Part shown: positions 25,440 to 33,309 of the stretch, in pieces
How positions within the stretch are numbered: position 1 is the first letter of the stretch
Layout: every line of letters starts with the position of its first letter
Assembly (NCBI GenBank): GCA_037440225.1
Contig: JBBIUN010000017.1
Span: 4,703-68,702 of the forward strand
Source of the DNA: Gemmatimonadota bacterium
GTDB lineage: Bacteria; Gemmatimonadota; Gemmatimonadetes; Gemmatimonadales; GWC2-71-9
DNA: 64,000 bases
Reading direction: 5' to 3'
Made by a program: the position numbers and the translations under genes
Notes under the pieces: model-generated
What the model was told of the DNA's origin: nothing
Seen by the model: the letters and a program-made list of their open reading frames with translations, nothing else
Databases searched by the model: none

Positions 25440-26180
25440 ATGGCCGGCACCCCCATCCCGCGCGACTGGAACGACATCCTCCTCACCGCCGTCATGCCGG
25501 CCTACAACGAGGAGGCCACCGTCGAGGCTGCGGTGCGCCGACTCCGGGAGGCTCCCCTGCGGCTGGAAATCATCTGCGTCAACGACGCCTCCCAGGACCG
25601 GACGGGCGAGATCCTGGAGCAGCTCAAGGGGCAGGGTCTGGTAGATCGGGTCATCCACCAACCCCGCAACCTGGGCAAGGGCGCCGCCGTGCGAGCCGGC
25701 ATCCGAGCCGCCACCGGCCACGTCATCGTGATCCAGGACGCGGACCTGGAATACGATCCCGCGGACCTACCAACCCTGCTCGAGCCCATCCGCCTCGACA
25801 AGGCAGACGCGGTCTTCGGGTCGCGCTTCCAAGCGGGACCGCGCCGGGTGCTCTATTTCTGGCATTCGGTGGGGAACCGGTTCTTGACCTTGCTCTCCAA
25901 CATGTTCACCGATCTCAACCTGACCGACATGGAAACCTGCTACAAGATGGTGCGGGCGGACCTCATGAAGTCGCTCGAGCTTACGTCCAATCGGTTCGGC
26001 ATCGAGGTCGAACTGACCGCCCGCCTGGCCCAGGCAGGGGCGCGCATCTGGGAGGTCCCCATCAGCTATAGCGGGCGCACCTACGCCGAGGGCAAGAAAA
26101 TAGACTGGCGAGATGGCATGGCCGCCATCTGGCACATCATCAGGTTCAATCTGTTCAGGCCGCGGCGCCGGACTCGGTGA
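25440..26180 (+). CDS. Family 2 glycosyltransferase, polyprenyl-phosphate sugar synthase-like
   Basis: The ATG lies 2 nt after the pilR stop. AVMPAYNEE…ICVNDASQDRT…VIQDADLEYDP…(ED) motifs of a GT-A/GT2 fold. ~246 aa, resembling dolichyl-/undecaprenyl-phosphate glycosyl synthases. Confidence 0.75.
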   Translation: MAGTPIPRDWNDILLTAVMPAYNEEATVEAAVRRLREAPLRLEIICVNDASQDRTGEILEQLKGQGLVDRVIHQPRNLGKGAAVRAGIRAATGHVIVIQDADLEYDPADLPTLLEPIRLDKADAVFGSRFQAGPRRVLYFWHSVGNRFLTLLSNMFTDLNLTDMETCYKMVRADLMKSLELTSNRFGIEVELTARLAQAGARIWEVPISYSGRTYAEGKKIDWRDGMAAIWHIIRFNLFRPRRRTR

Positions 26181-31483: not shown

Positions 31484-33309
31484 GCGCGCGGCGCGCGGTC
31501 CTGGTGGCGGCCCTGGCGGCGGCCCTGATCTATCTGCCCGCGCTGGCCAACCGCTGGGCCCTGGACGATCACGGGCTGATCGAGCGCAATCCGGCCGCCC
31601 ATTCGATCCGCGCCGCATGGCACGCGGCGTTCTCGGTCTATTGGCCCCCCGAGGGAGAATTCACGGCCGGCCTCTACCGCCCCCTCACCACCCTGAGCTA
31701 CGCCGTGGACTGGACCGCCTCGGGCGGCAAGCCCTGGTGGTTCCACCTCACGAACCTGCTGCTGCACGCTGCCGCCACCGCGCTGGTCGTGGCGGTGGCT
31801 CTCCCGTGGCTCCGCCCGCCCGGCGCCCTGCTCGCCGGCCTGGTGTTCGCCTGGCACCCGGTGCACGCAGAGGCCGTGGCCAACGTCGTGGGTCGGGCCG
31901 AAATCCTGGTGGCCATCGGGCTCTTGGGCGCGGTGCTGGCAGCTCGGCGGTACCGGCGGGCCACAACCCGAGGGCAAAGCCGCAGATGGCTCGCCCTGAC
32001 GCTCGCGTCCGTCATCCTCGCTTTGGGCTCCAAGGAGAACGGGGCCGTGGCACCCTTCGTGCTGATCCTGGATCAGGCGCTCGAGCCCGCTCCGCTCAGG
32101 CGCCGCGGCCAAAACCTCCACCTCGGTGTAATCGGCGTCACCGTAGCGTGGCTCTACCTCTGGCAAGCCGTGGCAGGGCAGGCTGTCGGCGCGGCTGCCG
32201 TCGCCTATCTCAAAGACCTCCCCCCGACCGCCCGCCTGGCAGCTATGCTGCCCGCCTATCTCGAGGCCGTGCGCCTCCTAGTCTGGCCCTTCCGCCTGGC
32301 GGCCGACTACAGTCCCCAGACGATTCCTTTCGTGACAGACTGGAGCTGGCTGTCCCCCATGGTCTTGGCCGTGATCGCTGCCCTCCTGGCGCTGGGAGTC
32401 CTGGCCCGGCGTGCCGCGCCTGCCGTGACGTTCGCCCTGTTTGCCGGCCTCGCAAGCTACCTGCCGACCTCGAACCTGTTCTTCACCTCCGGGGTCGTGC
32501 TGGCCGAACGGACCCTCTACCTGGCAGCACTGGCGCCCGCCTTGACCGCGGGCTGGATCCTGGAGCGCGAGGCCCTGGCGCGCCGGCGGCTGGCGGTGGC
32601 AGCGGGGGCCGCCGCGCTCCTCCTCGCCTTCGGCTGGCGCACGGTGAGCCGGATCCCCTTCTGGCGCGACACCAGGAGCGTGGTGATCGAGGGAGTGATC
32701 GAGCATCCGGAGAACTTCTCGAACCAGGTTCGCCTGGCCGAGGCCTTCTTGCGGGCCCGAGATACCACTCGGGCTCTGGCTCACTATTTGGTCGCCTACG
32801 AACTCTTCGACCGGTACGCCTTCGTTCCGGTGCAAGCAGCCCGGTTGGCATGGGCCCTGGGGAGGCGCGACCAAGCCATGGCCCTGGGGCTGCAGGCCTA
32901 CGCGATCGCGCCGGGCCATCCCGGACCGGCCGAGCTGTTGGCGGATCTCGTCCTTGCTACCGGGAAGAAAGACTCGGCAATGGCCTTGGCCCGAGACGCG
33001 GTGACTCGCAATCCTGGCAACCTGGCCGCACTCCGACTGTATGCCGCCACGCTGGACCGCGTGGCGGCACCGGCCTGGCAGGGCCAACTTGCTCGGGCGA
33101 GGCTCGACTGGCTCCAAGGCCGACTGGCCTCGGCGTCGGCGCGGCTCGACTCTGCCGGCCGGGCTGAGTGGAGCCCATTGAGTCGTGCTGCCTGCTCGGA
33201 CTTGGCCGATTCGAGGACCTTGCTCCAGGCCCTAGCACCCAAACTCGCCGAGCGGGCCGAAACGGAGGTCAGGCAATGCGGCGTTGATGGCGCGAAGATG
33301 TCCCGATGA
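31471..33309 (+). CDS. Second TMTC-like GT-C membrane glycosyltransferase with C-terminal TPR repeats
   Basis: 13-nt overlap. MSPLSARRAVLVAALAAALIYLPALANRWALDDHGLIERNPA motif. The segment HPVHAEAVANVVGRAE is near-identical to HPVHVEAVANVVGRAE in the 28162 paralog. TPR-like C-terminus. Confidence 0.6.
   Translation: MSPLSARRAVLVAALAAALIYLPALANRWALDDHGLIERNPAAHSIRAAWHAAFSVYWPPEGEFTAGLYRPLTTLSYAVDWTASGGKPWWFHLTNLLLHAAATALVVAVALPWLRPPGALLAGLVFAWHPVHAEAVANVVGRAEILVAIGLLGAVLAARRYRRATTRGQSRRWLALTLASVILALGSKENGAVAPFVLILDQALEPAPLRRRGQNLHLGVIGVTVAWLYLWQAVAGQAVGAAAVAYLKDLPPTARLAAMLPAYLEAVRLLVWPFRLAADYSPQTIPFVTDWSWLSPMVLAVIAALLALGVLARRAAPAVTFALFAGLASYLPTSNLFFTSGVVLAERTLYLAALAPALTAGWILEREALARRRLAVAAGAAALLLAFGWRTVSRIPFWRDTRSVVIEGVIEHPENFSNQVRLAEAFLRARDTTRALAHYLVAYELFDRYAFVPVQAARLAWALGRRDQAMALGLQAYAIAPGHPGPAELLADLVLATGKKDSAMALARDAVTRNPGNLAALRLYAATLDRVAAPAWQGQLARARLDWLQGRLASASARLDSAGRAEWSPLSRAACSDLADSRTLLQALAPKLAERAETEVRQCGVDGAKMSR

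Follow-up and report, generated by a model that had tools for sequence, protein, structure and literature searches.

A Candidate Pilin O-Glycosylation System of Gemmatimonadota: GT-C Glycosyltransferases, Including Bacterial TMTC Relatives, Encoded Between pilR and pilA

The Five-Gene Block within the Type IV Pilus Cluster

The subject of this study is a block of five glycosyltransferase genes, named here G1–G5, which lies between the regulator gene pilR and the type IV pilin genes pilA1 and pilA2 of a Gemmatimonadota bacterium and is considered as a candidate system for the glycosylation of pilins. The whole stretch of DNA analysed, referred to below as the window, is 64 kb long and has a G+C content of about 68%. 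The Pfam annotation of its + strand revealed a complete type IV pilus supercluster in the order pilB, pilT, pilC, an AstE/AspA-like gene, pilS, pilR, the five-gene block, and the two pilin genes. Downstream of the pilins follow a second pair of a histidine kinase and a sigma-54 regulator, three minor pilins, and then pilM, pilN, pilO, and pilQ. The features of the pilS–pilA2 region are listed in Table 1.

Table 1. Coding sequences and the promoter element of the pilS–pilA2 region, in window coordinates (aa, amino acids; TPR, tetratricopeptide repeat; AF2, AlphaFold2).
Feature	Position	Strand	Length and basis of the assignment
pilS, sensor histidine kinase	22391..24070	+	Pfam 6TM_PilS, PAS, HisKA, HATPase_c; 4-nt overlap with pilR
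pilR, sigma-54-dependent response regulator	24067..25437	+	Pfam Response_reg, Sigma54_activat (E = 4e-68), HTH_8
G1, glycosyltransferase family 2 (GT2) enzyme, probable polyprenyl-phosphate sugar synthase	25440..26180	+	246 aa; PF00535 and PDB relatives
G2, PMT_2/ArnT-like GT-C enzyme with a conserved C-terminal domain of ~200 aa	26177..28165	+	662 aa; PF13231
G3, TMTC-like GT-C enzyme with a C-terminal TPR domain	28162..29985	+	607 aa; BLASTP against human TMTC1
G4, GT-C fold enzyme with a small C-terminal alpha/beta domain	29978..31483	+	501 aa; AF2 model and Foldseek
G5, paralogue of G3 and likewise a TMTC-like GT-C enzyme with TPR domain	31471..33309	+	612 aa; BLASTP against TMTC1
Sigma-54 promoter (-24/-12 element) of pilA1, TGGCACagcgcTTGC	33441..33455	+	exact match to TGGCAC-N5-TTGC
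pilA1, type IV pilin, proposed acceptor	33514..33882	+	122 aa; N_methyl motif, partial match to NF041775 PilA
pilA2, second type IV pilin, proposed acceptor	33969..34352	+	127 aa; N_methyl motif

The TGA stop codon of pilR (25435–25437) is followed by the dinucleotide AC and then by the ATG of G1 at 25440, which leaves a gap of 2 nt. The block itself spans 25440–33309 with all genes on the + strand and overlapping by 4, 4, 8, and 13 nt, and the end of G5 is separated from the start of pilA1 by 204 bp. The element TGGCACagcgcTTGC is the single exact match to the sigma-54 pattern in the 64 kb window; it begins 132 bp past the block and 73 bp ahead of the pilA1 ATG. The limits of the block, its overlaps, and its distances from pilR, pilA1, and the promoter had been given in a preliminary description of the DNA, made from the letters alone, and all of them hold. 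Because the spacing is so tight, the arrangement suggests that the five genes are co-transcribed with pilS–pilR. The scans for terminators and sigma-70 promoters inside the block gave no signal above the shuffled background in either case. The pilins are presumably transcribed from their own sigma-54 promoter, driven by PilR. The strict sigma-54 pattern was found 5′ of the first pilin in just 10 of 51 related loci, with a looser pattern in 13 more, so that conservation of the promoter is not established. A second sigma-54-like element, TGGCACGGAGTTTTTGCA, is present right behind the G5 stop codon (33326–33343); it is probably non-functional, since the spacing between its GG and GC is 12 nt and the canonical spacing is 10.

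The codon-position composition test was passed by G2, G4, and G5, with a third-position G+C of 0.80–0.82, and the database homologues of G2, G3, and G4 numbered from 172 to 2601 for each protein. These results indicate that the open reading frames (ORFs) of the block are real genes and did not arise by chance.

G3 and G5, the TMTC-Like Enzymes

The proteins G3 and G5 were compared by BLASTP with the membrane domain of human TMTC1 (residues 23–459), which was taken from the alignment of Eisenhaber et al. (PMC7801869, supplementary file 2). G3 aligned with this domain over 373 aa (28% identity, E = 9e-26) and G5 over 369 aa (28% identity, E = 2e-22). The two proteins aligned with each other at 37% identity over 398 aa (E = 2e-35), indicating that they are paralogues.

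The published TMTC motifs were then located in G3. The DD of motif M1 (D33–D34) and the ERxxY of motif M7 (ERTLY, 352–356) are exact, as is the KE pair (K187–E188) of motif M4, KE(T/Q)xxT. Motif M2, SHKSYRP, appears as GHSLYRP with its YRP at 64–66, motif M3, RxD, appears as RAE within GRAE (R137-x-E139), and motif M5, DW, appears as DY (D285–Y286). The sequence HPVHVE is also present in G3, and the same set of motifs was found in G5. The PxxP of motif M6 is absent from both proteins. Among 41 relatives of G3, the conserved residues are those of the published TMTC ligand-binding motifs, at nearly the same positions as in TMTC3, and the DD, KE, ERxxY, and HPVHxE motifs are invariant or nearly so down to 33% identity. 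On the strength of these alignments, G3 and G5 are bacterial relatives of the TMTC proteins and belong to the GT-C class.

Pfam detected little besides TPR repeats in the two proteins. The family TMTC_DUF1736 was not matched by G3, scored 16.5 bits with G5 against a cut-off of 27, and was matched at E ≤ 0.01 by 4 of the 41 relatives. The AF2 model of G3 (pLDDT 91.7) contains about eleven membrane helices followed by fourteen C-terminal helices of the TPR type. The presence of TPR in G3 and G5 is supported by Pfam matches, and the profile of the G3 family matches TPR proteins in the PDB. The Foldseek search of the PDB with the G3 model returned a list filled by TPR matches, which is uninformative for the membrane domain. 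The odd number of helices and a conserved Cys pair would place the TPR domain of G3 and G5 on the non-cytoplasmic side. G3 is predicted to be, probably, the initiating protein O-glycosyltransferase of the system.

G1, the Putative Donor Synthase

G1 matched PF00535, the GT2 catalytic domain of the GT-A fold, at E = 3.7e-36 (125 bits, cut-off 23.3). Its best match in the PDB was the dolichyl-phosphate mannose synthase (DPMS) of P. furiosus (5mlz, E = 1.4e-16, residues 14–222), followed by GtrB (5ekp) and ArnC (9bhc); all of these solved relatives load a sugar onto polyprenyl phosphate. The top partial matches in NCBIfam were AglJ, Dol-P-hexose transferase, and PpgS, and a pattern search found a single DxD motif (D100-A-D102). 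G1 is therefore read as, probably, a polyprenyl-phosphate sugar synthase making the donor. A hydropathy scan of G1 found no hydrophobic segment, and the protein would thus be without the membrane anchor present in GtrB, ArnC, and archaeal DPMS. Anchor-less GT2 enzymes acting on polyprenyl phosphate exist (DPM1, Ppm1), and a missing anchor does not exclude the function.

G2 and G4, GT-C Enzymes without TPR Repeats

G2 passed the cut-off of PF13231 (PMT_2) marginally, with 27.0 bits against 26.1. Of the 120 relatives of G2 that were listed, roughly a third have the same domain, two relatives carry the NCBI name "glycosyltransferase family 39 protein", and the residues D109, E110, C527, and C584 are invariant in the family. 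The acidic motifs VDEM, FVYDD, FFDDGIY, and ALDD reported in the preliminary description are all present; the first-loop location assigned to them there is doubtful for D109–E110 of G2. Three hydrophobic segments precede this pair in a crude hydropathy scan, and for this reason D109–E110 probably lie outside the first loop. The scan misses some helices of these proteins, which are rich in alanine, and its results were taken qualitatively only. The C-terminal domains of G2 and G3 contain conserved Cys pairs, which fits an oxidising, that is, periplasmic, compartment.

The AF2 model of G4 reached a pLDDT of 94.4 and a pTM of 0.92. In the Foldseek comparison of this model with the PDB, matches 1–24 were all GT-C enzymes or related membrane-enzyme complexes of the endoplasmic reticulum (ER). 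The first was ArnT (5f15, E = 9e-7, TM 0.54/0.51), then came STT3, AglB, DPY19, ALG9, AftA, and PimE, the last of these (9dm5) being the twelfth match. As judged from its predicted structure, G4 is a GT-C fold enzyme. An acidic motif follows its first helix, and the residues D40–D41 are invariant among its relatives. The score of G4 with GT87 (PF09594) was 21.6 bits, under the cut-off of 25.

The searches of PDB sequences with G2, G3, and G4, as single proteins and as family profiles, returned nothing or TPR proteins only. When the G3 family was compared profile to profile with those of G2 and G4, only weak alignments resulted (probability 7% and 20%, E = 0.005 and 0.001, respectively), which are not relied on; the alignment of G3 with G4 did superpose the DD motifs.

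The classes proposed in the preliminary description were a GT2 polyprenyl-phosphate sugar synthase and four GT-C enzymes, two of them TMTC-like with TPR. They are supported by PF00535 and the DPMS, GtrB, and ArnC structures as the best solved relatives for G1, by the marginal PMT_2 match for G2, by the structural matches for G4, and by the TMTC1 alignments for G3 and G5.

The Block in Other Gemmatimonadota

To examine the gene neighbourhood, 80 Gemmatimonadota loci were fetched by the G3 profile (denominators below are the evaluable loci; individual loci are designated by L numbers). The close relatives are all from Gemmatimonadota. The comparison across related genomes, which the preliminary description had proposed, showed that the block stays at the pilR-to-pilA position: 59 of 73 loci have a pilin gene no more than 1.5 kb from the G3/G5-like gene, 50 of 63 have pilR, and 50 of 66 have an orthologue of G1. 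The preliminary description had named two computational checks that could refute it, the classification of the proteins and this comparison, and neither spoke against its interpretation. Over all fetched loci, 98 of the 121 G3/G5-like domains have a pilin gene within 6 kb. Copies of the G3 type and of the G5 type fall into separate clades, each of which is pilus-linked. The position between pilS–pilR and pilA is kept in Gemmatimonadales, Gemmatimonadaceae, and Longimicrobiales. Independent searches starting from distant relatives of G2 and G4 led to the same pilR-to-pilA slot, in one case in a complete genome of 5.5 Mb.

The gene content of this slot varies. Of the commonest forms, the combination of GT2 with one TMTC-like gene was found in 7 loci, the order G4–GT2–G3 in 6, and the full five-gene form in 5. 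The five-gene module of the preliminary description is one of many architectures. The Gemmatimonas metagenome-assembled genomes of loci L033, L036, and L044 contain GT2, a G3-like gene, and pilA. The block is modular: GT2 and one TMTC-like gene make up the common core, and the other genes are variable. This variation across the phylum suggests that the glycan diversifies.

Additional genes were seen in related blocks. In some relatives, the gene that directly follows pilR and precedes the GT2 gene encodes a membrane protein of 1016–1029 aa, which combines some nine hydrophobic segments at the N-terminus with a spermidine-synthase-like domain (L002:4181-7231, L001:5839-8928, and seven other loci); it is absent from the window and could act as a flippase or modify the glycan. 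Another protein absent from the window, an S-adenosylmethionine-dependent methyltransferase of 220–245 aa, is encoded directly 5′ of the GT2 gene in L004:8296-9033, L087:6617-7279, and L086:5016-5702, where it may methylate the glycan. In L004, an ORF of 80 codons that separates the GT2 gene from the G3-like one (9759-10001) resembles the N-terminus of G2 and looks like the remnant of a lost G2-type gene, that is, evidence of turnover in the block.

The Pilins

The pilins are short and rich in Ser and Thr, and they contain two Cys; in the pilA1 product, it is the globular part that is Ser/Thr-rich. Over 67 pilins, Ser plus Thr make up a median of 28% of the globular part, which speaks for the proposed acceptor role, although the value stands without a control set from genomes lacking the block. 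The Ser/Thr-rich regions reported in the preliminary description for the pilins were found again: the stretch YASSTTATGMSYNQSAGVTVTITSATGTGWTAT is present, and the second pilin lies where Table 1 places it. A comparison by eye, using the synteny table, revealed no one-to-one match between the copy numbers of TMTC-like genes and of pilins. The pilin ORFs L047:5292-5693, L064:14248-14688, and L028:14130-14627 have tails rich in Arg, Gly, His, and Pro instead of the Cys-containing C-terminus, and these tails look like frameshifts or assembly errors.

Other Genes of the Window

Directly after pilA2, the window encodes the second histidine kinase (HAMP, HisKA, HATPase) and the second sigma-54 response regulator (34238–36999), and many related loci, L001, L006, and L041 among them, contain the same pair. 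The AstE/AspA-like gene (succinylglutamate desuccinylase/aspartoacylase family) between pilC and pilS is located at 20406–21476 and occupies the same place in L001. An ORF of 2012 aa at 8277–14315, 5′ of the pilus cluster, matched SprA_N (E = 2e-14), which suggests a component of type IX secretion or gliding. The ORFs 38912–40042 (376 aa, after the minor pilins) and 44908–47406 (832 aa, after pilQ) had no Pfam match.

Proposed Pathway and Its Alternatives

We propose that the block probably, though by no means certainly, encodes a pilus-linked system in which pilins are O-glycosylated in the periplasm from a lipid-phosphate sugar, that is, a system of the type combining a polyprenyl-phosphate sugar synthase with GT-C transferases. 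Starting from the enzyme classes and the gene linkage established above, we infer the acceptor and the order of action as follows. G1, by its homology-based enzyme class, would move one sugar from a nucleotide sugar to polyprenyl phosphate at the cytoplasmic face of the inner membrane, and a protein encoded outside the block would flip the lipid-linked sugar to the periplasmic side. The TPR domains of G3 and G5, facing the periplasm, would bind the membrane-anchored PilA1 and PilA2, and the two enzymes would pass the sugar on to hydroxyl groups of Ser/Thr in the globular part of the pilin. Drawing on the same pool of donor, G2 and G4 may then lengthen the glycan or add branches to it, or they may act at other sites.

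The pilin is a candidate acceptor by gene neighbourhood and analogy. Several observations weigh against this proposal. A flippase gene of the GtrA, ArnE/F, or MATE type is missing from the block, where 25440–33309 leaves no room for one, and none was recognised in the annotated flanks. The genes of the block appear joined to the regulators, whereas tfpW and tfpO of the Pseudomonas systems lie downstream of pilA. G1 scored far under every named equivalog cut-off in NCBIfam (at best 110 bits against 325), and as it reaches no curated cut-off of this kind, its sugar cannot be named. Finally, four clear orphan paralogues of G3 were found in unrelated neighbourhoods, which means that the TMTC-like family is not restricted to pilins.

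The orphans (L053, L062, L070, and L079, at position 10001 in each) are 36–39% identical to G3, and genes for Ser/Thr kinases, a cytochrome c peroxidase, and urocanase are among those near them. The orphan-bearing L070 and the pilus-linked L064 come from one metagenome-assembled genome.

The occurrence of G3-like paralogues away from the pil genes is also what a general system of periplasmic protein O-glycosylation would predict, in which G3 and G5 modify many secreted or membrane proteins and pilin is one abundant target, as in the PglL-type systems of Neisseria and Burkholderia. The PMT and TMTC families act on protein classes and not on single proteins, and many bacterial pilin glycosylation systems later turned out to be general. 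However, the G3 and G5 clades themselves almost always adjoin pilA, and the block is embedded in the pilS–pilR–pilA unit in three orders, a fixed position that is not expected of a general system. We consider this explanation unlikely.

Still less likely, in our estimate, is that the block builds or modifies a non-protein glycoconjugate of the envelope needed by the pilus, such as a lipoglycan or a lipopolysaccharide (LPS) decoration (compare ArnT and PimE), or a polysaccharide that anchors retracting pili. The structural matches of G4, with ArnT as the best and PimE among the others, and the ArnT-like annotation of G2 relatives point in this direction. Three-component systems usually decorate polysaccharides, and a GT2 gene together with multiple GT-C genes is similar to the steps in which mycobacterial lipomannan is elongated from lipid-phosphate sugars. 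Yet the constant gene nearest pilA is the TMTC-like one with TPR, and protein O-glycosylation is the activity of its characterised relatives, namely TMTC and, by similar architecture, TfpW; the minimal blocks consist of GT2 and the TMTC-like enzyme only.

It is very improbable that G3 and G5 are mainly TPR scaffolds or PilF- or TadD-like pilus-assembly proteins with a degenerate transferase: some databases do name their relatives "PilF" or "TadD", but these names derive from the TPR repeats alone, and the near invariance of the catalytic motifs in the 41 relatives is unexpected in a dead enzyme.

The O-glycosylation of pilins by the block would, if confirmed, have several consequences. The conserved linkage to pilin genes provides a concrete, phylum-wide acceptor hypothesis for the bacterial TMTC homologues. 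Pilin glycosylation dependent on lipid-phosphate sugars would reach well beyond the single Pseudomonas case of TfpW, and several GT-C enzymes working in series on one periplasmic protein would be a new arrangement. A broader proposal, to which we give slightly less than an even chance, is that the TMTC orthologues throughout the phylum are dedicated type IV pilin glycosyltransferases, and that modular sets of additional GT-C enzymes, sometimes with methyltransferases, use a single lipid-phosphate sugar to build a variable oligosaccharide directly on pilin in the periplasm. In that case, pilin would be the first substrate of prokaryotic TMTC homologues, and the route to protein glycans would be stepwise and periplasmic, distinct from the en bloc route of PglL and TfpO.

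As the filament is exposed, the variation in gene content suggests that diversity of its glycan is under selection, with phages possibly as the driver. In Pseudomonas, pilin glycosylation has been described as a defence against pilus-specific phages, and by analogy with TfpO and TfpW, glycan diversity could help to evade such phages here. Gemmatimonadota abound in soil, and hardly any work exists on their surface biology.

Comparison with Known Systems

The nearest precedent is TfpW, the pilin arabinosyltransferase of the P. aeruginosa group IV strains Pa5196 and PA7. This GT-C enzyme has eleven membrane helices, a DD-type motif in a periplasmic loop, and a TPR domain at the C-terminus, also in the periplasm, and its gene adjoins pilA. 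It O-glycosylates several Ser/Thr residues of the pilin from a polyprenyl-phosphate sugar that enzymes of the cytoplasm produce, and in P. indica as well as K. denitrificans the pilA–tfpW genes are clustered with those of donor synthesis. G3 and G5 have the architecture described for TfpW, as they also are predicted GT-C enzymes with a DD-type motif and a C-terminal TPR and are encoded beside pilA. The preliminary description, which cited TfpW as a single GT-C enzyme, knew of no described module of a donor synthase and four GT-C enzymes co-transcribed with pilSR; in view of the TfpW systems, this novelty was overstated.

The differences from TfpW concern the donor, the gene order, and the gene number. 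The donor enzyme here is a GT2 protein of the DPMS/GtrB/ArnC type, whereas TfpW uses the D-arabinofuranose pathway of DPPR synthase, DprE1, and DprE2; the genes of that pathway are not in the block, which is wholly taken up by one GT2 and four GT-C genes. The block is located upstream of pilA and apparently joined to pilS–pilR, whereas tfpW is downstream of pilA, and up to four or five GT-C genes are found here instead of one. A pattern search of G2–G5 for the proline motif Yx6PFx7P of periplasmic loop 4 in TfpW and EmbC gave no match.

With the eukaryotic protein O-mannosyltransferases TMTC1–4 (CAZy GT105), G3 and G5 share homology over the whole catalytic domain of ~11 helices, including the DD, YRP, RxD/E, KE, and ERxxY motifs and the sequence LLFAVHPxHxEAVAxxVGRA, and in both groups the TPR domain follows on the non-cytoplasmic side. 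The eukaryotic TMTCs act in the ER on cadherin-type domains with dolichyl-phosphate mannose, whereas G3 and G5 are bacterial and diverge in the DY of M5, the missing M6, and scores below the DUF1736 cut-off. Full-length prokaryotic homologues of TMTC are common in poorly studied prokaryotes and have been assigned no substrate or function. In the literature, we found no paper that ties them to pilins or describes pilus glycosylation in Gemmatimonadota.

The three-component systems of extracytoplasmic glycosylation, namely GtrABC, ArnC/ArnEF/ArnT, and the pentofuranose systems (Kelly et al. 2024), likewise combine a polyprenyl-phosphate sugar synthase with a periplasmic GT-C enzyme. The block differs from them in that it has no flippase gene, in that its likely acceptor is a protein and not LPS, and in that several GT-C enzymes would share one donor synthase. 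A further likeness is to the actinobacterial pair of Ppm1 and PMT (GT39), in which an anchor-less GT2 polyprenyl-phosphate mannose synthase serves a GT-C protein O-mannosyltransferase acting on Ser/Thr-rich secreted proteins. The actinobacterial PMT, in contrast, carries MIR domains and not TPR, is not known to be linked to pilus genes, and acts on proteins during translocation. Set against these systems, the block would represent a new variant of pilin glycosylation by lipid-phosphate sugars and GT-C enzymes, within an overall type that is already known from TfpW.

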